This document shows, piece after piece, positions 7,262 through 41,502 of a DNA stretch of 64,000 nucleotides. Each line of letters begins with the position of its first letter. Position 1 is the first letter of the stretch. Made by a program: the position numbers and the translations under genes. Origin of the DNA: an uncultured cyanobacterium (lineage in GTDB: Bacteria; Cyanobacteriota; Cyanobacteriia; Cyanobacteriales; CAWCAG01); the NCBI GenBank assembly GCA_963803805.1, contig CAWDOD010000011.1, positions 160,001 to 224,000 of the forward strand, in the 5' to 3' direction. The notes under the pieces are model-generated. The model was not told where the DNA came from. It was given only the letters and a program-made list of their open reading frames with translations, and searched no databases.

Positions 7262-7573
7262 CACACAAAGAAAAGAAAAATTAGCTTAAGCTACTTATTT
7301 TCAGTTGCTAAGTCGTGTTTCCGGAAAGCTTTTGTCATTTATCATTAGAGAACAAGACCATAATTTAATTTTAGATAGGGTTTCTTCTACTGTAGAATTG
7401 CCTTCTTTATTTAAGGCACATTTTTCTCAACCAAAATATTAGCTAAATCTTCAAGAAAATTCTCATCCTGCTTTTACATAATTGCTCACTTGCTATATAT
7501 TTTCCTTAGAGTACTCCCCACTCTCTACCCTCACTGGATTACCTGGGCAACTAAACCAGATTTAGTATAATCA

Positions 7574-7984
7574 ATGAAAACTTCAGAAGCGAATGAATCT
7601 GATTCCCGCAAAAACATTTCAGAAAGACTCAAACAAGCTTTAACGATATTAAGAGAAATAGAAGAAGAAATAAGTTCTCAACCAGATTTGGCAGCGGCAT
7701 GGGAAAGGGTTGATGATTATTTAGATATTTGTCAAGTCAATCTTGTTAATGCTCTTTCAGTAATAGAATTGCAACAGCAACCAACCATGATTGATCCTAC
7801 TCCCATAGAAGAAGCAGTTGCTGAATTAAAAGAGCAGATTCTTAAGGCAATGCAAGAAAAAAAATTAGATAAACCGACAGAAGAAAAGCTAGTAGAAATC
7901 ACCGTTGCCCAAATTCGCTGGTTAATAGAATATCTCTCAAACAACCCCGATATCCTCCAAGCAAATATCTCTTCATCAGAATAA
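7574..7984 (+). CDS. Hypothetical helical protein
   Basis: 136-aa ORF with ATG start, TATAAT just upstream; no recognisable motif. Confidence 0.6.
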   Translation: MKTSEANESDSRKNISERLKQALTILREIEEEISSQPDLAAAWERVDDYLDICQVNLVNALSVIELQQQPTMIDPTPIEEAVAELKEQILKAMQEKKLDKPTEEKLVEITVAQIRWLIEYLSNNPDILQANISSSE

Positions 7985-8028
7985 GGTTAATTCAACCATA
8001 AACATACCTATTACCTATTACTTATCCC

Positions 8029-8844
8029 CTAACGCCGGCTAAACTCAATAACTCCAGTCTTAATATTAATATCGTAACCAGCATAAAAATCTTGCCCCAA
8101 CAAACCAATAGGCATATTAGAGGCCATAGACACCCTAACATTAGTTTTAACCCGCCCGTCAGTTGCCATAGATTTTAGTTGCATAACAGGCATAGAAACT
8201 ACTGAACCGTCAGCAATAACAATATTAGCAGTGCTAACAGGTTTTAACTCCAAAGCCTGGGCAATAGAGCTAGTAATTAGGGTATTAGTAGCTCCTGTAT
8301 CAAAAAGCATATCAAAGGTTTTGCTACCATTAAAAGTCACTGCCACAATTGGTATACCTTTATATTTTGCTTTAATTGGTACTGAGAAAAACTTAGGATT
8401 AGCATCGCTAGTAGTTTTTGTTGTATCGTCGCGGGGAGTTGCTCTTTGTTTTGCTTTTGCTAAATAGCCTTTGTATTCTGATAACTTCTCTTGGGCTATC
8501 TTATGGTTAGGGCTAGAAGTTGGCACTGTTTCTAATAACTTAATAACCTTTTCCCAACGTTGAGCAATCAATACCCAATCTTCCCTAGCTAGGGCTGACT
8601 TGCCCATCGCAGTGGCTCCTGTAGCCATATCAAAAGCTTTCTGGAAAGAATCTTCTTGAGGAGAAGGAGATACTTGGGGTGTAGGGGAAGGGGAGGCTTG
8701 AGGTGCAGGAGATACTGCTGCCTCAGCAGGAGAAACTTCAGCCGTGGAAGCAGTCTCAGAATCTTGACTACAAGCTACAGCACCTAGAGTCAAAATACTT
8801 CCTAAAAGGATTGTGGTAGTAGTTCGTAGTGAAGGTAGCTCCAT
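8029..8844 (-). CDS. Lipoprotein with C-terminal retropepsin-like aspartic protease domain
   Basis: Lipobox LGAVAC, P/S/A-rich linker, MLFDTGA and GLLGQDF motifs. Confidence 0.85.
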   Translation of the reverse strand: MELPSLRTTTTILLGSILTLGAVACSQDSETASTAEVSPAEAAVSPAPQASPSPTPQVSPSPQEDSFQKAFDMATGATAMGKSALAREDWVLIAQRWEKVIKLLETVPTSSPNHKIAQEKLSEYKGYLAKAKQRATPRDDTTKTTSDANPKFFSVPIKAKYKGIPIVAVTFNGSKTFDMLFDTGATNTLITSSIAQALELKPVSTANIVIADGSVVSMPVMQLKSMATDGRVKTNVRVSMASNMPIGLLGQDFYAGYDINIKTGVIEFSRR

Positions 8845-8999: not shown

Positions 9000-11000
9000 T
9001 TAGAGAGCTTTAGCTTTAGCCACTACATTATCAACCGTAAAGCCAAACTTCTCCATAGCTAAACCACCAGGAGAAGAAACGCCGAAGGTATCAACAGTAA
9101 TAGTATCGCCTTCAAAACCAACGTAGCGTTCCCAACCAAACTTAATACCAGCTTCTACTGCTAAACGCTTAGTAACTGCTTTGGGTAATACAGATTCTTT
9201 GTAAGAGTCATCTTGCTCTTCAAATAGTTCCCAACTAGGCATAGAAACTACCCGAACTTTCTTACCTTCATCAGCAAGTTTCTTAGCAGCATCAACACAG
9301 AGGTGTACTTCACTACCAGTACCAATGAGAATAATCTCAGGGGCATCACAATCAACTAAAGTATAAGCCCCCTTAGCGACATTCTCAATAGAGCTACCAG
9401 CTAAGTTGGGTACGCCCTGGCGGGTAAAAGCCATCAAAGTAGGACGAGTCCGATTTTCTACGGCGATTTTGTAAGCACCAGAGGTTTCGTTACCATCAGC
9501 CGGACGAATTACCACTAAATCAGGAATTGCCCGTAAAGAAGCGATGGTTTCTACGGGTTGGTGAGTTGGGCCATCTTCTCCTAAAGCGATGGAGTCGTGG
9601 GTCATAACCCAAATAACTCCAGTTTGAGAAAGGGAAGATAAACGAATCGCAGCCCGCATATAATCGGTGAAGATTAAGAAAGTAGCACCGTAGGCAATTA
9701 AACCAGAGTCATGGAGGGCAAGGCCATTACAAATTGCCCCCATACCATGTTCTCTGACCCCAAAGCGCACATTGCGATTTTCGTACTGCCCTTTTTGGAA
9801 ATCTCCCGATACGTCCATTAAGGTGAGGTTAGAGGGGGCCAAATCAGCAGATCCCCCAATGAGGTTAGTCAAAACTGGAGCTAAAGCGTTAATGCAAGCG
9901 TTGGAATGCTTACGGGTAGCTACGGCTTTATCTTCAGGAGTAAAGGTAGGTAAAGCATCAGCCCAACCATCAGGTAATTCCCCATTGAGGACAATTTTCT
10001 CAAACTCTTTAGCTTCTTCAGCATACTTTTTCTTGTATTCTGCCCAAGTTTGATTCCATTCAGCTTCAGCAGATTCACCCCGCTCTACAGCTTTGCGGAA
10101 GTGATTGAGAGCATCATCAGGGACAACAAAAGGCTCGTGATCCCAACCTAAGTGTTTCCGTGTCGCTGCTACTTCGTCTCCCCCTAAAGCAGCACCGTGT
10201 ACGCCGTGGGTGTTAGCTTTGTTAGGAGAGCCAAAACCAATAGTGGTGGTTACTTTAATTAAAGAAGGCTTATCAGTAACCGCTTTAGCTGCTTCAATAG
10301 CCTCAGCAATGGCTTCTAAATCTGAATTACCATCTTCAACGTGTTGTACGTGCCAACCATAGGCTTCATAACGCTTGCTGACATCTTCAGTGAAGGCTAA
10401 ATCTGTAGAGCCATCAATAGAAATATGGTTATCATCATAAAAAGCGATTAACTTGCCTAAGCCCCAATGCCCAGCTAAGGAACAAGCTTCTCCTGATACT
10501 CCTTCCATATTACAACCATCACCCATAATTACATAGGTGTAGTGGTCTACAATCTTACTATCAGGCTTGTTGTACTTTGCAGCTAAATGAGCTTCTGCTA
10601 CAGCTAAACCTACAGCATTGGCTACACCTTGCCCCAAAGGACCAGTAGTAATTTCCACTCCTTCGGTCATAAAGTTTTCTGGATGTCCAGGAGTCTTCGA
10701 TTCAAATTGCCGGAATTGCTTGATGTCTTCAATGCTTACGCCATCATAACCAGTAAGATACAATAAAGCGTATTGCAACATACAACCGTGACCCGCAGAA
10801 AGAACGAAGCGATCGCGGTTAAACCAGGCATCATTTTTGGGATTAAATTTCATGAAGCGGTCCCAAAGCACAAAAGCCATAGGAGCAGCGCCCATAGGTA
10901 GCCCTGGATGACCAGAGTTGGCCTTTTCTACAGCATCAATTGCCAGAAAACGGATTGAGTTGATGCAAAGTTCTTCGAGTGATTGGCTAGCAACGACCAT
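9000..11000 (-). CDS. tkt: Transketolase
   Basis: [39 protein letters not shown]. Confidence 0.98.
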
Positions 11001-11145: not shown

Positions 11146-12396
11146 TTAAAGATATTTTTTGAAAGCCAAAGTTACGTTATGACCACCAAAACCGAAGGAG
11201 TTAGAAAGAGCTACTAGCACTTTTTGTTCTCGGCTGATGTGAGGTACGTAATCTAAATCGCAGTCAGGATCAGGGCTATCAAGATTAACAGTTGGTGGGA
11301 TTTTGTCGTTAGCTACTGCCATAGCCGTAGCTACCGCTTCTATACCTCCGGACCCCCCTAAAAGATGTCCCGTCATAGATTTTGTCGAACTAATCGCTAC
11401 TTTGTAAGCACTTTCTCCTAATGCTTGCTTAATAGCCTTTGTTTCGGTGGGATCATTGGCGGGAGTGCTTGTACCATGAGCATTAATGTAACTTACTTGT
11501 TCTGGACTAATGCCCCCATCTTTAAGGGCTAACTGTATAGCCCTAGTTGCTCCCTCACCTCCAGGCACTGGCGCCGTCATGTGGTAAGCATCACAGGTCA
11601 TACCGTAGCCAACAATTTCGCCATAGATTTTGGCTCCCCTACTCAAAGCGTGTTCCAGTTCTTCTAAAAGTAGTATGCCTGCACCTTCTCCCATTACAAA
11701 ACCATCGCGGTCTTTATCAAAGGGGCGACTAGCATGGATAGGATCATCATTGCGGCTAGAAAGGGCCCGAGCAGAAGCAAAACCTGCTACCGCTAAGGGG
11801 GTAACAGCAGCTTCTGTACCACCACAAATCATAGCTTGGGCGTAACCCCTCTGAACTAAGCGAAAGGCATCTCCTACAGCGTGGGAACCTGCAGCACAAG
11901 CAGTCACCGTACAGGAGTTAGGGCCTTTCGCCCCTGTATGAATAGCAGCTAACCCCGCAGCCATATTAGCGATCATCATGGGAACCATAAAAGGGCTACA
12001 GCGAGAAGGTCCTTTATTAAGGTAAATTTCCTGCTGGTCTTCGAGAACTTTAATACCTCCGACACCAGTACCAATGATGATACCTATTTGTTCAGCGTTG
12101 AGGTCATTAATCTCAAATTTGGCATCTTCTAAAGTCTGTTTACTAGCGGCGATCGCGAATTGAGCGAAGCGATCCATACGCTTAGCCTCTTTACGGCTAA
12201 CATAATCATGGGGATCGAAACCTTTAACCTCTCCAGCAATCTGACAGGCATGGCGAGAAGCATCAAATAGACTAATAGGAGCAATGCCACTACGTCCATT
12301 TAATAAACCTTGCCAATATTCATTGAGGCTATTTCCCAAGGGAGTAACGGCTCCGAGGCCAGTTACAACAACCCGTTTTAGTTGTAAATTTGTCAT
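11146..12396 (-). CDS. fabF: Beta-ketoacyl-ACP synthase II
   Basis: TACAAG, YINAHGTST, KSMTGHLLG, SNSFGFGG; follows acpP. Confidence 0.97.
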   Translation of the reverse strand: MTNLQLKRVVVTGLGAVTPLGNSLNEYWQGLLNGRSGIAPISLFDASRHACQIAGEVKGFDPHDYVSRKEAKRMDRFAQFAIAASKQTLEDAKFEINDLNAEQIGIIIGTGVGGIKVLEDQQEIYLNKGPSRCSPFMVPMMIANMAAGLAAIHTGAKGPNSCTVTACAAGSHAVGDAFRLVQRGYAQAMICGGTEAAVTPLAVAGFASARALSSRNDDPIHASRPFDKDRDGFVMGEGAGILLLEELEHALSRGAKIYGEIVGYGMTCDAYHMTAPVPGGEGATRAIQLALKDGGISPEQVSYINAHGTSTPANDPTETKAIKQALGESAYKVAISSTKSMTGHLLGGSGGIEAVATAMAVANDKIPPTVNLDSPDPDCDLDYVPHISREQKVLVALSNSFGFGGHNVTLAFKKYL

Positions 12397-25854: not shown

Positions 25855-27005
25855 ATGACATCCCAAGGTTTTTCTGTTTCTTTTACTTCATTACTCAAGC
25901 AACTGCTCCTTCTCGGCAGCCGTCATTGGTGGCTATCATTTTTAATTTGGATTGTTTTGGTGGGACCGCCCAAGCTGCTTTTGAATTGCGCGTAGCTATT
26001 AAGGATGGGGTTAGTCAGTTAGATGTCGGTAGTTCTACCCCAGCAGTAATTAAAAACGAAGCTGGACAAAAAATTGGTGAGATTAGGCCAATGAACTCGG
26101 TTACGGCTGTTTCTGAGGGTAATGGGATTAGTTTAGAGGGATATCAAGGTGGTCAAATTTGGATTGAACCAACCGGAGATGGCACTGTTTGGATCGGTGA
26201 TCGTTGGTATCGCGGTGATACTCAATTAGTTCCTAATGGTCAAGGAATTACTGCTATTAATCATGTTGATATTGAAGATTATCTTTATAGTGTGGTTGGG
26301 GCAGAAATGTATGCAAGTTGGCCACAAGAAGCTTTAAAATCCCAAGCTGTATCTGCCCGTACCTATGCCCTTTACCAAAGTGCTAAATCTAATAGCAGTC
26401 TTTATGATTTGGACACTACCACAGCAACTCAAGTTTATAAGGGTTTGAACAGCGAAACTAACACCACTGTACAAGCGGTTGATGCCACCAGAAATGAAGT
26501 TTTAACTTACAACGGAGAACCAATTTTAGCAGTTTTCCATGCTTCTTCTGGAGGTCATACGGAGAATGTAGAAGATATTTGGTCAAATCCTTTGCCTTAT
26601 CTCCGGGGGGTAGTTGATTATGATAATGATGCTCCGGTTTACCAATGGACAAAAAGTTTTAGCAAAGGGCAAATGAGTCAACTGATTGGTGGGGTAGGAA
26701 CAATTAGCTCTATTACTCCTGTTCAAGTTACTCCCCAAGGACGCATTGTCACCATGAAAGCAGTAGGTAGCAATGGTACAAAAGAAGTTAGCGGGGCGCA
26801 ATTACGCAAGGTCTTAGATTTACGCAGTACCCTATTTAGCATCTCTGCTACTGGGGATGGTTTCCAAGTTTCTGGGCGAGGTTTTGGCCATGGTGTCGGG
26901 CTTAGCCAATGGGGGGCAAGAAATTTAGCCCAACAAGGAGTTCAATACAATCAAATTTTAGGTCATTATTATCAAGGTACAAGTATTTCTTTACTGGAAG
27001 AGTAA
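25855..27005 (+). CDS. SpoIID/LytB domain protein, with an apparent 1-bp loss near 25962-25971
   Basis: YLYSVVGAEM, ALKSQAVSARTYA, QVYKG, GFGHGVGLSQWGA; the N-terminal hydrophobic leader from ATG 25855 (after AAGGAG) is in a different frame from the body. Confidence 0.85.
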
Positions 27006-27046
27006 GAATTGATTCGTCAAGGACTTAGGGGAGCAAAATAATCATG

Positions 27047-27096
27047 AGGTTAAGTAGTTTAAGCTCATCTTGAGGTGAGCTTAAACTACTTAACCT
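27047..27096. terminator. Long (~23-bp stem) hairpin downstream of spoIID and of the FGE/VR fragment
   Basis: AGGTTAAGTAGTTTAAGCTCATC-TTGA-GGTGAGCTTAAACTACTTAACCT, one G-T pair. Confidence 0.75.
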
Positions 27097-27118
27097 TGCC
27101 CATCCTGCAAAAAAATTA

Positions 27119-27383
27119 GCACTTCGCGCAAGCCCAAGGGCAAGAGGACAAAAAGGTAAAGGGCTAGGAAGTCCTGGGGGAAGAAAGGTAAAGGGCTAGG
27201 AAGTCCTGGGGGAAGAACGGGCAAGGCGAAACCGACATAGTTGAAACGGCTACCGGGAACGTTGAAGAAGCAACAAGCAGAACGACAAATCCAAGGATCG
27301 TTGAGCCAAGAACCACCGCGTCTAATACGGGAACGATTATCATTATCATTATTGTCAATTAACCAAGCACTTCCAGCAGAAGT
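27119..27383 (-). pseudogene. Orphan C-terminal fragment of an FGE-sulfatase/CLec-fold gene resembling a DGR variable region, plus its 3' flank
   Basis: GSAWLIDNNDNDNRSRIRRGGSWLNDPWICRSACCFFNVPGSRFNYVGF, then (one base missing) RLARSSPRTS*. Confidence 0.8.
27152..27215. repeat. Perfect 32-bp tandem duplication
   Basis: AAAGGTAAAGGGCTAGGAAGTCCTGGGGGAAG at 27152-27183 and 27184-27215. Confidence 0.95.
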
Positions 27384-27887
27384 AAAGTTTAACAAGCAAA
27401 GTGAGTTATGGCTAAAACCTTGCAACTGTGCTTCACAAAAATTGTATTTTGTCAAATAAACTTTTTCCCTGTTACATAACTTAATACGACTGCATGACCC
27501 TATTAAGCTGTTTGGAGAAGCGAAAGAATTTGATAACAACGCTAAATCAAGCTTTGGGGAGAAAAAACTTGATTTTAGTTATAAGAAACCAAAAATAGCA
27601 TGAGGTAATAATAGCTCAAAAGGCGCAATTGTGTAAATAAGGGTCTTGACAAAGGCAAATAATTTATTTTCGTGACATTTGTTTTTTCAATTTGTAAACA
27701 CCAAAAAGCTTAACAAAACTAATCCTTTTGGTTGTAGCAGAAAAACAAAAACAAAAGTACTTTTATAAAAAATATCGCACAGTCAATTAAAGGAATTTCC
27801 GATAAAGACTGCACGACTAATTTAGATAATTTTAACCACTACATTATCGACAAAGGGTATTTGTTTCTCAACCTGATCACCCCATAA

Positions 27888-29024
27888 TCACCTTTCTCCC
27901 ATACCCAAATAAGGAGCATCATGAACTCCGGTATAAACTTGAGTGGGGCGGAAGATACGGTTAACAGCGAGCTGTTCTTTCCAATGTGCTAACCAACCAG
28001 CTACCCTAGCGATCGCAAATATCGGGGTAAATAAATCTGTAGGAATGCCCAACTTACGATAAACCAAGCCAGAGTAGAAGTCTACGTTAGCATAAATCCC
28101 TCTGTGGCCTAGCTTTTCCTCCACTACAGATTCCAATTCCAAAGCCATTTCGTAATATTTATCCTCCCCAGTTTCAGTAAATAGCTTTTCCACCAAACTT
28201 TGCAGAATAATAGCCCTAGGATCTTTGACCTTATATACTCTGTGGCCAAAGCCCATAATCTTTTGCTTGTGTACCAAACAATTTTCTATATAGGGGCGAA
28301 CATTTGCCACAGAACCAATTTCTTCTAACATCTCAATAACTTCTTCATTAGCACCGCCGTGTAAAGGTCCAGCTAATGTACCTACCGCCGAAGCAATTAC
28401 TCCGTAGGGATCTGTCAAAGTAGAAGCTGTTACCATTGCCGAGAATGTCGAAGCGTTAATGGTATGTTCGGCATGGAGAATCAGACAAACTTCAAAGATT
28501 TTTGCGGCAATAGGATCTGGTTCTTGTTCTGTAAGCATATACAGAAAGTTCCCTGCATAACCAAGGTCGTCTTTTGGTTGTACCGGATCATGACCTTTAC
28601 GCATCAGCTTAAAAGCTGCTACCATCGTCGGCATCTTCGCTAGTAGCCTCACCACTGCTTCTCGAATATATTCTGGGTTATCCAAAGCACGGCGGGAATA
28701 GAACAAGCCTAAAGCTGCTGCTGAGGTTTGTAGGGCATCCATGGGGTGACTAGTCTCTGGGAAACATTTCATCATATCCCGAATGCGATATTTAATGCGC
28801 CGATGATGATTGACATCATATTTGAAAGCAGTAAATTCTTCTTCTGTGGGTAACTTGCCCCAAATTAGTAAGAAAGCTGTTTCTAGAAATGTTGACTTTT
28901 CTGCTAATTCTTCAATACGAATGCCGCGATACTCAAGAATACCCTGTTTGCCATCCACATAGCTAATATCAGACCGGGCTGCGGGAATACCTTCTAAACC
29001 TGGTTTATATTCACAAACTGTCAT
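27888..29024 (-). CDS. gltA: Citrate synthase
   Basis: HAEHTINAST, GPLHGGAN, MGFGHRVYK, ANVDFYSG; ATG at 29024. Confidence 0.97.
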   Translation of the reverse strand: MTVCEYKPGLEGIPAARSDISYVDGKQGILEYRGIRIEELAEKSTFLETAFLLIWGKLPTEEEFTAFKYDVNHHRRIKYRIRDMMKCFPETSHPMDALQTSAAALGLFYSRRALDNPEYIREAVVRLLAKMPTMVAAFKLMRKGHDPVQPKDDLGYAGNFLYMLTEQEPDPIAAKIFEVCLILHAEHTINASTFSAMVTASTLTDPYGVIASAVGTLAGPLHGGANEEVIEMLEEIGSVANVRPYIENCLVHKQKIMGFGHRVYKVKDPRAIILQSLVEKLFTETGEDKYYEMALELESVVEEKLGHRGIYANVDFYSGLVYRKLGIPTDLFTPIFAIARVAGWLAHWKEQLAVNRIFRPTQVYTGVHDAPYLGMGER

Positions 29025-29117
29025 ACTTCTACCAATAAGCGACAAAATACTTTTGAGATTATCTTGCTTTGATAAGGTGAATAGTGATTTTTACTACAAC
29101 TAGCACCTAGACAAACA

Positions 29118-35767: not shown

Positions 35768-37474
35768 ATGCTGCGATTAGAACATATTAGTAAAATTTAT
35801 CCTACAGGTGAGGTTCTCAAGGATGTTACTTGGGAAGTGAAGCCAGGAGAAAGAGTTGGTTTAGTAGGAGTTAATGGCGCAGGAAAGTCTACTCAGCTCA
35901 AAATTATTACTGGAGAAACTGAACCTACTTCTGGGGAAGTGGTACGTCCGGGGAGTTTGCATATTGCTTATCTTACCCAAGAATTTGAGGTAGAACCTAC
36001 TCGTACTGTCAGAGAGGAGTTTTGGACGGTATTTACAGAGGCAAATCAGGTACAGCAAGCTATTGGGCAAGTAACTTTGGAAATGGAGACAGCCTCACCA
36101 GAGAAGTTAGAGAAATTAATTAATAAGTTAGATAAGTTACAGCGCCAGTTTGAAGCTTTAGATGGTTATGGTTTGGAGGCGCAGATTGAGAAGATTTTGC
36201 CAGAAATGGGTTTTAAGAGCGAAGATGGCGATCGCTTAGTTTCTTCTTTTAGCGGCGGTTGGCAAATGCGTATGAGTTTGGGGAAAATTTTACTCCAAAA
36301 CCCTGATGTTTTACTTTTGGACGAACCAACCAACCATTTAGATTTGGCAACTATTGAATGGTTGGAGACTTATCTTAAGTCTCTTAAAACTCCTATGGTT
36401 ATTGTTTCCCATGACCGGGAATTTTTAGATTGCCTCTGTACAAAAATTGTGGAAACAGAAAGGGGTGTAGCGACAACTTATCCAGGTAATTATTCAGCTT
36501 ATTTACAACAAAAAGAAGAAGCAAAATTAGCCCAACTAAGTACCTATGAACGGCAACAAAAAGAGCTTGAAAAGCAACAGGTATTTATTGAAAAGTTCCG
36601 GGCTAGTGCTACTCGTAGTACCCAAGCGAAAAGTCGAGAAAAGCAATTAGATAAAATTGAACGGGTAGAAGCACCAACTGCTGATTTAAGAGGCTTACGC
36701 TTTAAGTTTCCCCCTTCTTCCCGTAGCGGTAGAGAAGTGGTGGCAATTAAAGATTTAACCCATACCTATAATGAGAATATTCTTTTTGTTGGTACAGAAT
36801 TAGAAATTGAAAGGGGCGATCGCGTGGCTTTTTTAGGGCCTAATGGGGCGGGAAAGTCGACTATTTTAAGAATGATCATGGGCTTGGAAACCCCGGAAGA
36901 TGGTCAAGTCAACTTAGGAAAACATAATGTTATTCCCGGTTATTTTGAACAGAATCAAGCTGAAGCTTTAGATTTAAACCGAACAGTTATGGAAACCATT
37001 CACCATGAGGTTCCTGACTGGAAAAACGAAGAAGTTCGCCGTTTGTTAGGACAGTTTTTGTTTAGTGGTGAGACTGTATTTAAGAAGGTAGATGCTTTAA
37101 GTGGGGGAGAAAAAGCCCGTCTAGCTTTGGCAAAAATGCTCCTGCAACCAGCCAATCTTTTAATTTTAGATGAGCCTACTAACCATCTTGATATTCCCGC
37201 TAAGGAAATGCTCGAAGAAGCAATTCAAAACTACGACGGTACTGTTATTGTTGTTTCCCACGACCGTTATTTTATCTCCCAAATAGCTAACAAAATCGTC
37301 GAAATTCGTGATGGTGAGTTTCGCACTTACTTGGGAGATTATCACTACTATTTAGATAAAATTGCTGAAGAAAAAGAGGCAGTTAGGTTAGCTAAAATTG
37401 CAGCAGAAAAAGAAGCAAAGAAAAAAGCCAAAGCTGCCAAGAAGAAGACCAAAACAGCTTCTAAAAGTCGATAA
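35768..37474 (+). CDS. ABC-F family ATP-binding protein
   Basis: Two ABC domains (GVNGAGKST/SGGW/LDEPTNHLD; GPNGAGKST/LSGGEK), no TM. Confidence 0.95.
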   Translation: MLRLEHISKIYPTGEVLKDVTWEVKPGERVGLVGVNGAGKSTQLKIITGETEPTSGEVVRPGSLHIAYLTQEFEVEPTRTVREEFWTVFTEANQVQQAIGQVTLEMETASPEKLEKLINKLDKLQRQFEALDGYGLEAQIEKILPEMGFKSEDGDRLVSSFSGGWQMRMSLGKILLQNPDVLLLDEPTNHLDLATIEWLETYLKSLKTPMVIVSHDREFLDCLCTKIVETERGVATTYPGNYSAYLQQKEEAKLAQLSTYERQQKELEKQQVFIEKFRASATRSTQAKSREKQLDKIERVEAPTADLRGLRFKFPPSSRSGREVVAIKDLTHTYNENILFVGTELEIERGDRVAFLGPNGAGKSTILRMIMGLETPEDGQVNLGKHNVIPGYFEQNQAEALDLNRTVMETIHHEVPDWKNEEVRRLLGQFLFSGETVFKKVDALSGGEKARLALAKMLLQPANLLILDEPTNHLDIPAKEMLEEAIQNYDGTVIVVSHDRYFISQIANKIVEIRDGEFRTYLGDYHYYLDKIAEEKEAVRLAKIAAEKEAKKKAKAAKKKTKTASKSR

Positions 37475-37561
37475 GCTCTTTATTTAATCAAGCAGTTATT
37501 TTTTAAAATCAAGATATCGATATTTAAAAAATAGCTTTCTCTTATCCTATCTAATTGTAGA

Positions 37562-38573
37562 ACGTGAGTTCGACGGAGGAAAAAGAGAGAAAAGAAAAGC
37601 ATCAGAGGTATGCTGAAAATGAATCTTAATCAGAATCTGATGCTATGTCCAATATTGTATCTCGTCTCGATATCACCCAAATATTCTGTCAGGTAGATGA
37701 CTTTTATCAAAGGTTTGAGAGGCATTGGCAACAACAGCCAATGTTAACAGCAACTTGTGGAGAGCGTCTATGTCGCTCCCGCCTAAGCCTAAGCGAAGTG
37801 ATGACCATTGTCATTGCCTTTCATGGTTCGGGATTTCGCACTTTTAAAGAATTTTACACTCTACAAGTCTTGCCTTACTGGAAGAAAGCTTTTCCCAACT
37901 TGGTCAGTTACACTCGATTCGTAGAGCTAATGCCGTGGAGCTTAATGCTTCTTTGCTGTTTTCTACATACTCTTCGAGGAGAAATTACCGGCATCAGCTT
38001 TATTGATTCTACCCCCATTGAGGTCTGCCACCCGAATCGCTCCAAAAGCCACCGTGTTTTTGAAGGTTTGGTAGGTTGGGGCAAAAATGCTATGGGATGG
38101 CATTATGGCTTCAAGCTACATCTAATTATTAATGACAAAGGTGAGCTGCTTGCTTTCAAACTTACAGAGGGTAATACTGATGACCGTAACCCTGTGCCAG
38201 ATATGGCTGATGGCTTGATTGGTAAGTTATTTGGCGACCGAGGTTATATTTCTCAGGATTTGTTTGAGAAACTCTATGAACAAAGACTACAACTGATTAC
38301 ACACCGCAAGAAAAATATGAAGCCGAAGTTAATGCGTCTTCAGGATAAGATTCTCCTACGTAAGCGTTCTCTGATTGAGACTGTTAATGACCAGCTCAAG
38401 AATATCTGTCAGATTCAGCATTCAAGACACCGTAGCGTTTGGAATTTTTTGGTTAATCTCTTAGCTGGTCTAATCGCTTATACTTTCTTGCCCAAAAAGC
38501 CTTCCCTTGACCTTGACCCCAAAGGCCTAGCTGAACTTCCTTCTGCTGTTTTTTAACTTCATCGAACTCACGT
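37562..38573 (+). mobile_element. IS982-family insertion sequence (~1012 bp)
   Basis: IRs ACGTGAGTTCGACGGAG / CTTCATCGAACTCACGT; flanking direct repeat TGTAGA at 37556-37561 and 38574-38579. Confidence 0.92.
37645..38556 (+). CDS. IS982-family DDE transposase
   Basis: SEVMTI, SYTRF, FIDSTPI, GWHYGFKLH, GDRGYIS, KRSLIETVNDQLK. Confidence 0.93.
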   Translation: MSNIVSRLDITQIFCQVDDFYQRFERHWQQQPMLTATCGERLCRSRLSLSEVMTIVIAFHGSGFRTFKEFYTLQVLPYWKKAFPNLVSYTRFVELMPWSLMLLCCFLHTLRGEITGISFIDSTPIEVCHPNRSKSHRVFEGLVGWGKNAMGWHYGFKLHLIINDKGELLAFKLTEGNTDDRNPVPDMADGLIGKLFGDRGYISQDLFEKLYEQRLQLITHRKKNMKPKLMRLQDKILLRKRSLIETVNDQLKNICQIQHSRHRSVWNFLVNLLAGLIAYTFLPKKPSLDLDPKGLAELPSAVF

Positions 38574-38741
38574 TGTAGAGTTTCCATTTCTGTTAACTCT
38601 GGTAAACCTGTTGGCCATTCCTCAAAAAAATTAGGATCGCGGATACGTTGAGAATGCTTTGTTTGAGAGGATTGTTGAGGATACAAACTAATGCAGCTCT
38701 ATTTACTTGATAATATTTAAGATGCGATTGCTAAAAAAATC

Positions 38742-40088
38742 ATGAGTCAAGCTTCCCTCAACCCCGCTAAAATCACCAATGTTTTACCCAATTCCATCGC
38801 CGCAGAAGTTGGTTTTGAAGTTGGGGATGCTTTAGTGGCGATAAATGGCACTCGCCCTCGCGACTTAATTGACTATCAGTTTTTATGTGCTGATGAAGTA
38901 TTAGAATTAGAAGTTATTGATAGTCTTGGGGAGATTCATCAAGTTGAAATTGAAAAAGACTATGACGACGACTTAGGCTTAGAATTTGAAACCGCTCTTT
39001 TTGATGGTTTAATTCAGTGTAACAATCGTTGTCCTTTTTGCTTTATTGATCAGCAACCACCAGGTAAGCGAGATAGCTTATATCTTAAAGATGATGATTA
39101 TCGCCTCAGCTTTCTTTATGGCAGCTATTTAACCTTAACTAATTTAAGCGAGAAAGAATGGCAACGCATTGAAGCTATGCGCCTTTCTCCCCTTTATGTT
39201 TCTGTTCACGCCACGGAACCAGAAATACGCATCAACCTACTCAAGAATCCCCGCGCAGGGCAAATTAAAGCCCAATTAGCTTGGTTCCAGGAACGACGTT
39301 TGCAAATCCATGCTCAAGTGGTTGTTTGTCCAGGAATTAATGATGGTGTTCATCTTGAAAGAACCTTACTAGATTTAGCCTCCTTCCATCAAGGAGAAAT
39401 CCCTACCGTTGCTTCTGCTGCTGTTGTACCTGTGGGTTTAACTCGTTTCCGCCCCAACTTAACGGAATTAACCCCGGTGAGCCGTGATAAGGCAGCAGAA
39501 GTGATTAAGCAAGTAAAGCTTTTGCAAAGTAAGTTCCGCCAACAGTTAGGGACAAACTTTGCTTGGTTAGCTGATGAATGGTTCTTAATTGCCCAGGAAG
39601 AACTTCCCCCCACTTCCCATTATGAATCCTATCCTCAAATTGGTAATGGTGTGGGTTCGATTCGTCAATTTCTCCAGGAATTTCAAACTACAGCCAACGA
39701 GATGTTACCGAGTAAATTAGCTAAACCAAGAAAGTTGACTTGGGTAGTGGGTAATGCTGTTGAAAAAGCGTTTCAACCTTTGGTTCAACAATTAAATGAG
39801 GTAGAAGGATTAACAGTTAATCTTGCTGCAATGAATAGCGAATATTGGGGACAGGAAATAACTGTAACTGGCTTACTGACTGGAGAAGACTTATTAAAGA
39901 ATCTCCAAGGTAAAGATTTAGGTGAAGGAATTTTGTTACCTTCAGTAATGTTGAAACATGGCGATACTTGCTTTCTTGATGATTTAACTGTAGAGGAATT
40001 AGAAGCAAAATTAGCTGTAAAAATACTACCCGTTACTGGCATTGCTGAATTAATTACCAAGGCAACACGTTTGATAATTGATAATTGA
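38742..40088 (+). CDS. PDZ/DUF512 putative Fe-S radical-SAM-like oxidoreductase (TIGR03279-type)
   Basis: N-terminal PDZ-like region, CNNRCPFCFIDQ, KDDDYRLSF, VPVGLTRFR, VTGLLTG. Confidence 0.9.
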   Translation: MSQASLNPAKITNVLPNSIAAEVGFEVGDALVAINGTRPRDLIDYQFLCADEVLELEVIDSLGEIHQVEIEKDYDDDLGLEFETALFDGLIQCNNRCPFCFIDQQPPGKRDSLYLKDDDYRLSFLYGSYLTLTNLSEKEWQRIEAMRLSPLYVSVHATEPEIRINLLKNPRAGQIKAQLAWFQERRLQIHAQVVVCPGINDGVHLERTLLDLASFHQGEIPTVASAAVVPVGLTRFRPNLTELTPVSRDKAAEVIKQVKLLQSKFRQQLGTNFAWLADEWFLIAQEELPPTSHYESYPQIGNGVGSIRQFLQEFQTTANEMLPSKLAKPRKLTWVVGNAVEKAFQPLVQQLNEVEGLTVNLAAMNSEYWGQEITVTGLLTGEDLLKNLQGKDLGEGILLPSVMLKHGDTCFLDDLTVEELEAKLAVKILPVTGIAELITKATRLIIDN

Positions 40089-40090
40089 TA

Positions 40091-40696
40091 TCACCAAATT
40101 TTCGTCATTGGTAAGCAGAAACCTGGTAATTCTGGCTCACCACTAACTTGAGGGGGATTTTCTAATACTTGAGGCTCTTGATTCGGGCGATAAATATAAA
40201 CAGTACGATTTTGACGATCTATTAACCAACCGAGCAATACACCATTGTCAATGTATTCCTGCATCTTAGCTTGCAAACGGCTTAAGGTATCACTCGAAGA
40301 ACGCAACTCAATGACAAAATCAGGACAAATGGGTGCAAAAGAGGCTTTTTCCGGCTCCGTGAGAGCATCCCACCTTTCGGCTTGAATCCAAGCAGCATCA
40401 GGGGAACGAGTTGCACCATTGGGCAAAGTAAATCCTGCACTTGAGTCAAAGCCTAGCCCTGTACCATCTTTTTCTGTCCAAATGCCTAGCTGTAGGGCAA
40501 GATTAAAGTTGCGGTTTCCAGTGTCGGAAAAAGCGGGTGGCATAATTATAACTTCTCCACTGGTAGTTCTTTCGATACGGAGGTTGGGGTTAGCCTGACA
40601 AAAATCATAGAACTGATCGCGAGTCATGGGGGCGATCGCTGGCAAAGAAACTGTTAAGGGTGTTGTTTGAGTTTGAATGAGTAAGGTTGTTGTCAT
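40091..40696 (-). CDS. Uma2-family (PD-(D/E)XK) putative endonuclease, copy 1
   Basis: IERT..GE.IIMPP, FDSSAGF, SPDAAW, PDFVIELRS, KMQEY, LGWLID. Confidence 0.92.
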   Translation of the reverse strand: MTTTLLIQTQTTPLTVSLPAIAPMTRDQFYDFCQANPNLRIERTTSGEVIIMPPAFSDTGNRNFNLALQLGIWTEKDGTGLGFDSSAGFTLPNGATRSPDAAWIQAERWDALTEPEKASFAPICPDFVIELRSSSDTLSRLQAKMQEYIDNGVLLGWLIDRQNRTVYIYRPNQEPQVLENPPQVSGEPELPGFCLPMTKIW

Positions 40697-40737
40697 ATTG
40701 TTATTTCCCCATGCCAAGAATTAATAATTGATCATTG

Positions 40738-40761
40738 TTCGGCTTGCCTTTGCAGTTAGGC
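40738..40761 (+). repeat. 24-bp small dispersed repeat at GATC, in the spacer between the Uma2 copies
   Basis: cattg|TTCGGCTTGCCTTTGCAGTTAGGC|atcattg; reverse complement matches 29613-29636 with 2 substitutions. Confidence 0.8.
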
Positions 40762-40778
40762 ATCATTGATAATTGATA

Positions 40779-41384
40779 TCACCAAATTTTCGCCATTGGT
40801 AAGCAGAAACCTGGTAATTCTGGCTCACCACTAACTTGAGGGGGATTTTCTAATACTTGAGGCTCTTGATTCGGGCGATAAATATAAACAGTACGATTTT
40901 GACGATCTATTAACCAACCGAGCAATACACCATTGTCAATGTATTCCTGCATCTTAGCTTGCAAACGACTTAAGGTATCACTCGAAGAACGCAACTCAAT
41001 GACAAAATCAGGACAAATGGGTGCAAAAGAGGCTTTTTCCTGCTCCGTGAGAGCATTCCACCTTTCGGTTTGAACCCAAGCAGCATCAGGGGAACGAGTT
41101 GCACCATTGGGCAAAGTAAATCCTGCACTTGAGTCAAAGCCTAGCCCTGTACCATCTTTTTCTGTCCAGATCCAGAGATGAGCAGCAAGATTGAAGTTGC
41201 GGTTTCCAGTGTCGGAAAAAGCGGGTGGCATAATTATAACTTCTCCACTGGTAGTTCTTTCGATACGGAGGTTGGGGTTAGCCTGACAAAAATCATAGAA
41301 CTGATCGCGAGTCATGGGGGCGATCGCTGGTAAAGAAACTGTTAACGGTGTTGTTTGAGTTTGAATGAGTAAGGTTGTTGTCAT
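40779..41384 (-). CDS. Uma2-family putative endonuclease, copy 2
   Basis: Near-identical to copy 1 (duplicated unit 40077-40721 / 40765-41409). Confidence 0.92.
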   Translation of the reverse strand: MTTTLLIQTQTTPLTVSLPAIAPMTRDQFYDFCQANPNLRIERTTSGEVIIMPPAFSDTGNRNFNLAAHLWIWTEKDGTGLGFDSSAGFTLPNGATRSPDAAWVQTERWNALTEQEKASFAPICPDFVIELRSSSDTLSRLQAKMQEYIDNGVLLGWLIDRQNRTVYIYRPNQEPQVLENPPQVSGEPELPGFCLPMAKIW

Positions 41385-41502
41385 ATTGTTATTTCCCCAT
41401 GCCAAGAATGCCAGAAATAAAGTGTTTAATGTTTAATAATCAATGATAAATGACATAAATTGGTTTATGTTGGAAGCAATTTATACTTAGTTAAATCTTC
41501 CT

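Follow-up and report, generated by a model that had tools for sequence, protein, structure and literature searches.

The window, by which we mean the whole 64-kb stretch of cyanobacterial DNA analysed here, carries in one of its intergenic gaps a short stub that is probably the fossil 3′ end of a former DGR target gene. The stub is a 5′-truncated coding remnant on the minus strand (27228..27392), comprising the last 55 codons of an FGE/C-type-lectin domain (...TSAGSAWLIDNNDNDNRSRIRRGGSW...CRSA...NYVGF) as recognised by tblastn, BLASTP, Pfam, phmmer and protein alignment. It is followed by a flank of the type that trails the variable regions (VRs) of cyanobacterial DGRs. Four lesions, namely the missing gene body, a lost T, a TGC codon and a tandem duplication, point to a fossil, and the stub has the look of everyday genomic debris, not of a functioning part.

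The FGE tail and its chromosomal setting

With 40.1% G+C, and with dnaA, an ARC6/Ftn2-type division gene, transketolase, fabF and other core genes present, the window looks like cyanobacterial chromosome. An informal look at its genes gave no sign of widespread frameshifts. The stub lies in the 880-nt gap between a SpoIID-like gene (25926-27005, plus strand) on one side and the citrate synthase gene gltA (27888-29045, minus strand) on the other. The nearest named relative of the SpoIID-like protein is a protein labelled 'MAG: Spirulinaceae cyanobacterium' (92% identity); a few others reach 85–86%, and the remainder are at or below 66%. The 495 nt that lead from the stub to gltA are AT-rich, with 29–33% G+C as against 51% over 27100-27299. 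Positions 27380-27890, upstream of the stub, show no repeat elsewhere in the window and no FGE homology, and they did not reveal the cause of the truncation.

Adjoining the stub is a near-perfect 24-nt inverted repeat (27047..27096), the sole repeat of its kind in the window. None of 200 shuffles equals its folding (z = −8.6), and it is probably a terminator between convergent transcripts. We treat it as context only, for it may not belong to the relic. An Rfam search of 26800-28000 gave no match near the gathering score; the 11 weak matches fell mostly on the large hairpin. Promoter and terminator scans around the stub showed no enrichment, with five promoter-like sites where 2.7 ± 2.1 were expected. 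The IS at 37400-38800 had no match among plasmid sequences, and a search of phage records with the stub was likewise without a match.

An earlier note on this DNA had read the segment as the end of an FGE/CLec-fold gene, quoting the codon string TGG CTC AAC GAT ... GTC GGT TT. Every sequence that it quoted is present on the minus strand, where this string runs from 27308 down to about 27229, and the assignment itself is upheld by tblastn, BLASTP and phmmer alike. In BLASTP the stub shares 27 of 49 residues with the 537-aa protein P0003 (E = 1e-15). Against 1.84 billion proteins, phmmer with the 55 stub residues returned 257 at E ≤ 1e-3 and six at E ≤ 1e-10, the best identity being 61%. The Pfam FGE-sulfatase profile (PF03781) matches the stub at profile positions 207-251 of 255 only (E = 0.003), and the score of 17.7 bits lies under the 23.3-bit cut-off, as expected because the piece is only 45 residues long. 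The stub neither spans the roughly 255 positions of the whole FGE-sulfatase domain nor attains its gathering score. Word-based protein searches matched two longer proteins and none of similar length. As judged from these sequence comparisons the resemblance to FGE exceeds chance, and a fortuitous likeness was rejected.

When five full-length FGE proteins were used as tblastn queries over the whole window, homology was confined to 27228-27392. No FGE homology was found upstream of 27392 in any frame, or elsewhere in the 64 kb; the gene body is therefore missing. Protein alignment leads to the same boundary: full-length relatives have MHGNVWEWC..W..NYEGAPTDGSAW immediately upstream, and the window, which is without it, begins at ..TSAGSAW. 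An intact target gene is thus not what is found here, since only the last 55 codons are present and their frame is shifted at the GFR motif; with respect to the old stop they lie where a VR would be expected.

The other parts of a DGR are also missing from the window. None of its 52 ORFs of at least 110 aa matches an RT, Avd or FGE family, and tblastn with three DGR RTs and three Avds gave no match in the window. Blastn with five TR-plus-spacer stretches found nothing in the window besides the stub, and self-comparison of 27050-27460 with the window by blastn disclosed no second copy and no template (TR). The earlier description of a DGR-type variable region without a gene body and with no RT nearby holds on both counts, the second for the 64 kb of the window. 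A pattern of the stub that tolerates changes at adenines was also run over a collection of genome contigs that does not include the source genome. It hit 17 loci, none of them cyanobacterial and none with FGE, RT or Avd homology.

Variable-region signatures and the 3′ flank

Comparison of the stub with plasmids by blastn matched two cyanobacterial FGE genes, one of which lies in the complete annotated DGR of Anabaena sp. 90 pANA02 (NC_019429.1, locus L018). That element has two FGE genes, avd and RT, with VR1 at 7995-8118, VR2 at 9032-9156 and TR at 11184-11308. At the DNA level the stub matches VR1 at 84.6% over 52 nt, VR2 at 75% and the TR at 80%. The pANA02 TR, used as a plasmid query, drew 15 records, from which five further loci were taken. 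Alignment A2 comprises 15 sequences, the window and 14 relatives.

Six cognate TR/VR pairs from three plasmid DGRs provide a calibration, with 13–17 mismatches at the 28–31 TR adenines and none at the 63–70 other positions. Scored against the four non-cognate TR-type sequences, the window has mismatches at adenines versus other positions of 21/31 versus 8/63, 19/29 versus 11/65, 17/27 versus 17/67 and 21/31 versus 15/63. Genuine VRs scored against non-cognate TRs show adenine-clustered mismatches in the same range. The pattern is consistent with a VR, although what defines one is a TR of the same genome, along with an RT and usually Avd, that nearly repeats it and differs at TR adenines alone. 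Of the 63 non-adenine positions of the pANA02 TR, eight are mismatched in the stub, and that TR is therefore not the template of the stub.

The VR-equivalent stretch, from the RGGSW codons to GGTTTCG (27225..27320, minus strand), is depleted of adenine and has NNY codons where TRs have AAY. It contains 10 A in 96 nt, as against 29.6% A in coding strands; among 4873 in-frame 96-nt coding stretches from ten genes of the window none has 10 or fewer, the minimum being 13. All 10 adenines of this stretch fall at columns where all four TR-type sequences have A. The AAY-type set comprises 15 codons, each of them AAY in two or more of these four sequences. The third base is C or T in 14 of these 15 codons in the stub (background 55%, p = 0.0016), and the odd one is TGG, where the TRs have GAA, AGG, AAT and AAT. 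The stub thus presents an adenine-poor scaffold with AAY-derived NNY codons.

Only three of the 15 codons are still AAY, and the stub is therefore a VR and not a TR. Its identification as a TR was rejected on this ground and because the conserved TR spacer, which serves in priming, is absent. The AAY-rich template that the earlier note had reconstructed hypothetically proves to be very near real plasmid TRs, for instance that of Acaryochloris (TGG AAC AAC AAT CCG AGG AAT TGC ... CCC GAG AAC CGC AAC AAC AAT ATC GGT). On the strength of its sequence features, then, the stub is best taken as a VR of a DGR, neither a TR nor a generic FGE tail. The adenine and codon signatures suggest that it was diversified in the past; in principle a paralogue long free of DGR control could retain NNY codons poor in adenine.

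Downstream of the coding remnant the minus strand continues into a pyrimidine-rich flank of VR type (CCCTTTACC..., 27119..27230). Its 74% pyrimidine is reached by 36 of about 63,900 112-nt stretches, all of which start at 27109-27178, and it is the sole such tract in the window. A comparable pyrimidine-rich tract of the CCCTTTACCCTTTT type lies 3′ of the stop in eight of eight genuine cyanobacterial VRs and in none of five TR-type sequences. All five of the latter run on into a conserved structured spacer that is absent from the window. The sequence CCCAGGACTTCCTAG occurs twice on the minus strand, its AGGACTTCCTAG part lying at 27207-27196 and 27175-27164. The putative ancestral stop, TAG in the frame after the lost T, is at 27196..27198 (minus strand), with a second copy at 27164-27166, and coincides in position with the stops of Anabaena and Acaryochloris VR genes in alignments A1 and A2. 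The pyrimidine tract had been correctly described before as carrying CCCTTT repeats; these are in part a perfect 32-nt tandem duplication, which had been missed.

The mini-hairpin that had been noted, GCGC-GAA-GTGC, is indeed present at 27129-27119 and is followed by T7 at 27115-27109 (together 27109..27129, minus strand), about 67 nt from the old stop and in the same relative place as the hairpins of the pANA02 VRs. Its weakness had escaped notice: the stem is 4 bp with a GAA loop, z is 0.19, and its folding is equalled or bettered by 113 of 200 shuffles. The hairpin and T7 may be the terminator of the old gene or a DGR hairpin. The phage DGR consensus, as given in the available text of PMC3240598, has a GC-rich stem of 7–10 bp and a GRNA loop, 4–34 bp from the VR. 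The mini-hairpin does not match this consensus, and neither do the genuine cyanobacterial VRs examined.

Lesions and alternative histories

The first reading of the segment had also overlooked a frameshift. At 27229..27231 (minus strand) the window has a run of three T where 14 of 14 relatives in alignment A2 have four (GGTTTTCG), and this one-base deletion leaves the stub reading GGTTTCG, with the frame shifted at the conserved GFR motif. After the lost T the frame reads ..CRFRLARSSPRTS and ends at the TAG at 27198-27196, the usual kind of C-terminus; parallel endings in relatives are GFRVVCSAPRPLQ and GFRVVCSGAART, each closed by a stop, and GFRVVCEIPRT. The in-frame reading GFALPVLPPG... 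(GFALPVLPPGLPS...) has no homologue. Situated in a short homopolymer, the lost T could be an assembly error. A further lesion lies off the adenines: TGC (Cys) at 27270..27272 (minus strand) replaces the CGC of the family, the Arg of CRSAxR. CGC stands at this site in 14 of 14 relatives of A2, including all four TR-type sequences, R is found in every protein homologue inspected, and the sole C>T change to which the earlier note had drawn attention is thereby confirmed. It could be that TGC is a feature of the lineage's own TR and not a lesion.

The perfect 32-nt tandem duplication (27152..27215, minus strand) consists of copies at 27152-27183 and 27184-27215, with 100% identity and a spacing of 32. 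It spans the end of the VR with its IMH-like CCCCCAGGACTTCC, the stop codon and 13 nt of flank, and is absent from eight of eight genuine VR flanks. Library proteins offer instances of VR repetition, with tandem VR-only arrays in P0124, P0126, P0127, P0129, P0135, P0137 and P0138 and a partial VR duplication in P0141.

Truncation alone is no proof of inactivity, because upstream sequence is dispensable for homing in the Bordetella phage system, according to the available text of PMC3240598. That rewriting of the stub has ended is argued chiefly from the lesions of its TR-covered stretch. The lost T and the C-to-T change both fall within the stretch that three cognate TRs cover; homing would have overwritten them, and the stub is taken on this account as having ceased to be rewritten. 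It presumably encodes nothing functional.

The favoured history may be outlined as follows. An ancestral gene would have encoded a protein with a C-terminal FGE/C-type-lectin domain, the final 35 or so codons of which were repeatedly replaced by adenine-mutagenised cDNA copied from a TR. A later deletion or rearrangement would have taken away everything upstream of the ...GSAW codons, leaving the VR, its IMH-like end, the old stop, the pyrimidine-rich 3′ flank and the small hairpin with its T-run. Subsequent damage, not of the kind that DGR homing produces, would then have removed a T at GFR, changed C to T in the conserved Arg codon and duplicated 32 nt over the stop. Both this order of events and the present inactivity of the stub are what we infer from the features described above.

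Of the fates that had been proposed for the segment, a decayed remote target fits best, and continued activity has to be weighed against it. It is conceivable, if unlikely, that the stub is a live homing site without a gene, rewritten in trans by a DGR elsewhere, which would need no more than the VR end, the IMH and the flank downstream, and forming a hypervariable locus with no protein product. In the BPP-1 system, as far as the available text of PMC3240598 goes, upstream sequence is dispensable, and a foreign gene can be targeted once it has an IMH and a hairpin; cyanobacteria commonly have remote targets, which account for 76 of the 121 genes apparently diversified by DGRs in a survey (PMC7517822, available part). 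The VR-type 3′ flank of the stub is intact, moreover, and the 32-nt duplication would be recent, given that its copies are identical. Homing, however, would have replaced both the lost T and the C-to-T change. The hairpin, with its 4 bp and 3-nt loop, is no better than shuffles and falls short of the GC-rich 7–10 bp of the phage consensus (PMC3240598, available text); the duplication has moved it 32 nt farther from the first IMH-like end; and neither RT nor Avd nor TR lies within the 64 kb. That DGR cDNA, or a retro-copied VR, was inserted ectopically into the gltA–spoIID spacer and was never part of a gene there appears highly improbable. The stub is about the size of a TR plus some 55–70 nt, and in P0145 (137 aa) a non-FGE N-terminus is joined to a VR stub that starts within about four residues of the same point, a breakpoint that hints at recurrence; the tandem VR-only units of library proteins, too, show that VR-sized pieces get copied. 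Yet cDNA would bring TR sequence only, whereas the stub has a VR-type flank, stop, pyrimidine tract and hairpin, found in none of five TR-type sequences. FGE homology also starts about 18 codons upstream of the RGGSW codons (54 nt, or about 72 nt by the tblastn limit), and the three cognate TRs start at those codons or a few bases before them. This extra coding sequence and the VR-type flank disfavour the ectopic cDNA that had been put forward as a second fate.

That the stub is what remains of an ordinary FGE-family paralogue on which no DGR ever acted, and that it resembles a VR through shared domain ancestry, we likewise hold to be very improbable. Many cyanobacterial CLec/FGE paralogues are without TR/VR homology, by the account in the available part of PMC7517822, and searches of the window brought up no cognate TR for the stub. 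Such a remnant, however, would have to account for the very low adenine content, in which the 10 A that are left all stand at TR-adenine columns, and for the C or T that ends 14 of 15 variable codons, both signatures uncalibrated on non-DGR cyanobacterial FGE genes, as well as for a DNA-level likeness to the VRs, the TR and the VR flank of bona fide DGRs. It is scarcely credible that the open frame at 27090-27539 (149 aa, TTG start) is a real small gene with a co-opted FGE tail. A frame of 149 codons in AT-rich DNA, 55 of them upstream of the FGE homology, does speak in its favour. But it has no ATG, no homologue of similar length among 21 candidates and no Pfam domain save the sub-threshold match of the tail, and on these grounds it was rejected. 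It also crosses the GFR motif at the frameshift, then the tandem duplication, and goes on in sequence without relatives, its 55 FGE residues are too few for a fold of about 250, and promoter-like sites are, as mentioned, not enriched.

A bolder reading brings the DGR itself into the damage. Faulty retrohoming at the VR might have caused both the loss of the gene body at its 5′ edge and the 32-nt duplication of its IMH-like end, and a DGR elsewhere may still rewrite the stub; we regard this as decidedly unlikely. If it were true, DGRs would rearrange and multiply their own target ends besides recoding them, and the VR-only arrays and P0141 would fit.

Known systems and implications

The DGR of Anabaena sp. 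90 pANA02 is the closest DNA-level relative found, and its VRs have in common with the stub the scaffold CGCGGTGGTTC.TGG ... CCT ... TG.CGTTCTGCT ... GGTTT. Like the stub, they have a stop soon after ..AGGACTT, a pyrimidine-rich flank, a small triloop hairpin and a T-run. Both pANA02 VRs are followed by a 6-bp triloop hairpin and T8, whereas the stub has a 4-bp stem and T7. On the plasmid, full-length targets, TR, Avd and RT lie within 3.5 kb; the window has the VR tail alone.

Detached or damaged DGR parts have been described before. According to the available part of a survey of cyanobacteria (Vallota-Eastman et al. 2020, PMC7517822), all3226 of Nostoc PCC 7120 has remnant TR–VR homology with neither an RT gene nor an RT pseudogene in its neighbourhood, and a DGR cassette in Anabaena sp. 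90 is degraded. The remote targets treated there, like the stub, have C-terminal CLec/FGE variable regions far from an RT. They are, however, intact genes with N-terminal domains, and the stub has lost its gene body and has a frameshifted tail; VR stubs without a gene are not described in the part of that source available. In Pelodictyon phaeoclathratiforme BU-1 one VR belongs to no coding region that could be identified (Schillinger et al. 2012, PMC3521204, available text), and in this respect resembles the stub. The Pelodictyon VR was found through a TR match in the same genome, as the available text has it (PMC3521204), whereas the stub is cyanobacterial and known without a TR.

Further DGR debris turned up among the seven plasmid loci examined here. 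Plasmid Cy782202 of Gloeothece PCC 7822 carries an unannotated 5′-truncated FGE fragment of about 178 residues (L023, 679-1209), Microcystis NIES-2481 p1 an unannotated 5′-truncated RT plus a TR (L020, 3228-4116), and pAQ6 of Picosynechococcus PCC 7002 an orphan TR that has internal deletions and neither RT nor FGE in its vicinity (L024, 4001-4061). Broken DGR parts are not rare. The debris in Gloeothece, Microcystis and PCC 7002 is plasmid-borne, in contrast to the stub, which is chromosomal, lies between core genes and has 55 residues. In a non-exhaustive literature search we met with no account of a cyanobacterial VR stub that lies on a chromosome and lacks a gene.

The silent cassettes of antigenic variation, such as pilS of Neisseria, are promoterless partial copies that contain the variable part only; they occur in families with conserved flanks and recombine into an expression locus. 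They are the analogy behind the third fate that had been suggested, a silent variant reservoir. The stub differs from them in being frameshifted, single in the window and devoid of a known expression locus, and no evidence was found to support a role as reservoir.

For annotation, the finding means that what occupies the gltA–spoIID spacer is a fragment of a pseudogene and neither a regulatory nor a novel element. Software that searches for TR/VR pairs could easily mistake VR stubs of this kind for remote targets. Adenine depletion together with NNY codons may allow a former VR to be recognised without a TR at hand, as signatures that are as yet uncalibrated on non-DGR FGE genes. A systematic look may be worthwhile at two things: the conserved pyrimidine-rich flank of cyanobacterial VRs, and the tandem arrays of VR-only units among public proteins. 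For the organism itself, the stub would mean that this Spirulinaceae-like lineage has, or once had, a cyanobacterial DGR of the FGE type.

Sequences around the stub

The stub, the 55-codon remnant of a probable former DGR target gene with its variable region (VR) between the SpoIID-like gene and gltA, is immediately adjoined by an inverted repeat (window 27047-27096) with arms of 24 nt that are 96% complementary and a loop of 2 nt. It is the sole long, separate-armed inverted repeat across the 64 kb window. Its folding gives a z-score of -8.6, with 0/200 shuffles folding equally well, and its Rfam matches are sub-threshold only. The repeat may be a terminator lying between the transcript of the SpoIID-like gene and that of gltA/stub, which converge.

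Roughly 10-14 kb away are an IS with a DDE_Tnp_1_3 transposase and, in the same region, a neighbouring pair of Uma2-family endonuclease genes, both encoding 208 aa (window 37645-38556 and 40091-41405). The IS is without a near-identical copy in the plasmid collection, and no link was seen between the stub and either the IS or the Uma2-family genes.

Frameshifted, truncated and repeated VRs

The DGR locus of Anabaena sp. 90 plasmid pANA02 (L018) is otherwise complete, but at about 8060-8075 its VR1 has one base fewer than its own TR, the site reading CTCTC-ACC vs CTCGAC in the 15-sequence DNA alignment A2. A frameshifted VR, like that of the stub, therefore also occurs within an otherwise complete DGR. 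The annotated first FGE gene of pANA02 (7479-8312) overlaps the second and has an odd read-through C-terminus, which the loss of this base appears to explain.

Unannotated DGR debris is found on other cyanobacterial plasmids: a 5'-truncated RT with a TR in Microcystis NIES-2481 p1 (L020, 3228-4116), an FGE fragment in Gloeothece PCC 7822 (L023, 679-1209) that is truncated at its 5' end and has a transposase in its vicinity, and, in PCC 7002 pAQ6 (L024, 4001-4061), an internally deleted orphan TR near which there is no RT or FGE.

Certain public library proteins are made up of, or open with, 3 to 9 tandemly arrayed units. Each unit is confined to the C-terminal ~45 residues of the FGE domain (RGGSW..CRSA..GFR), so that Pfam profile positions ~205-255 recur along the chain. 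The proteins with arrays or VR duplication are P0124, P0126, P0127, P0129, P0135, P0137, P0138 and P0141. In P0141 part of the VR is duplicated in frame from RVIRGGSW onward, with differences between the two copies at the variable positions.

A pyrimidine tract 3' of VRs

A pyrimidine-rich CCCTTTACCCTTTT-type tract lies immediately 3' of the stop codon in all eight genuine cyanobacterial DGR VRs compared, which come from Anabaena, Acaryochloris and Microcystis (L018 8117-8200 and 9155-9240, and VR flanks in plasmid loci L019, L021 and L022). TR-type sequences are followed instead by a conserved structured spacer. This conservation across genera, in non-coding DNA, makes the tract a possible cis element of cyanobacterial FGE-type DGRs.
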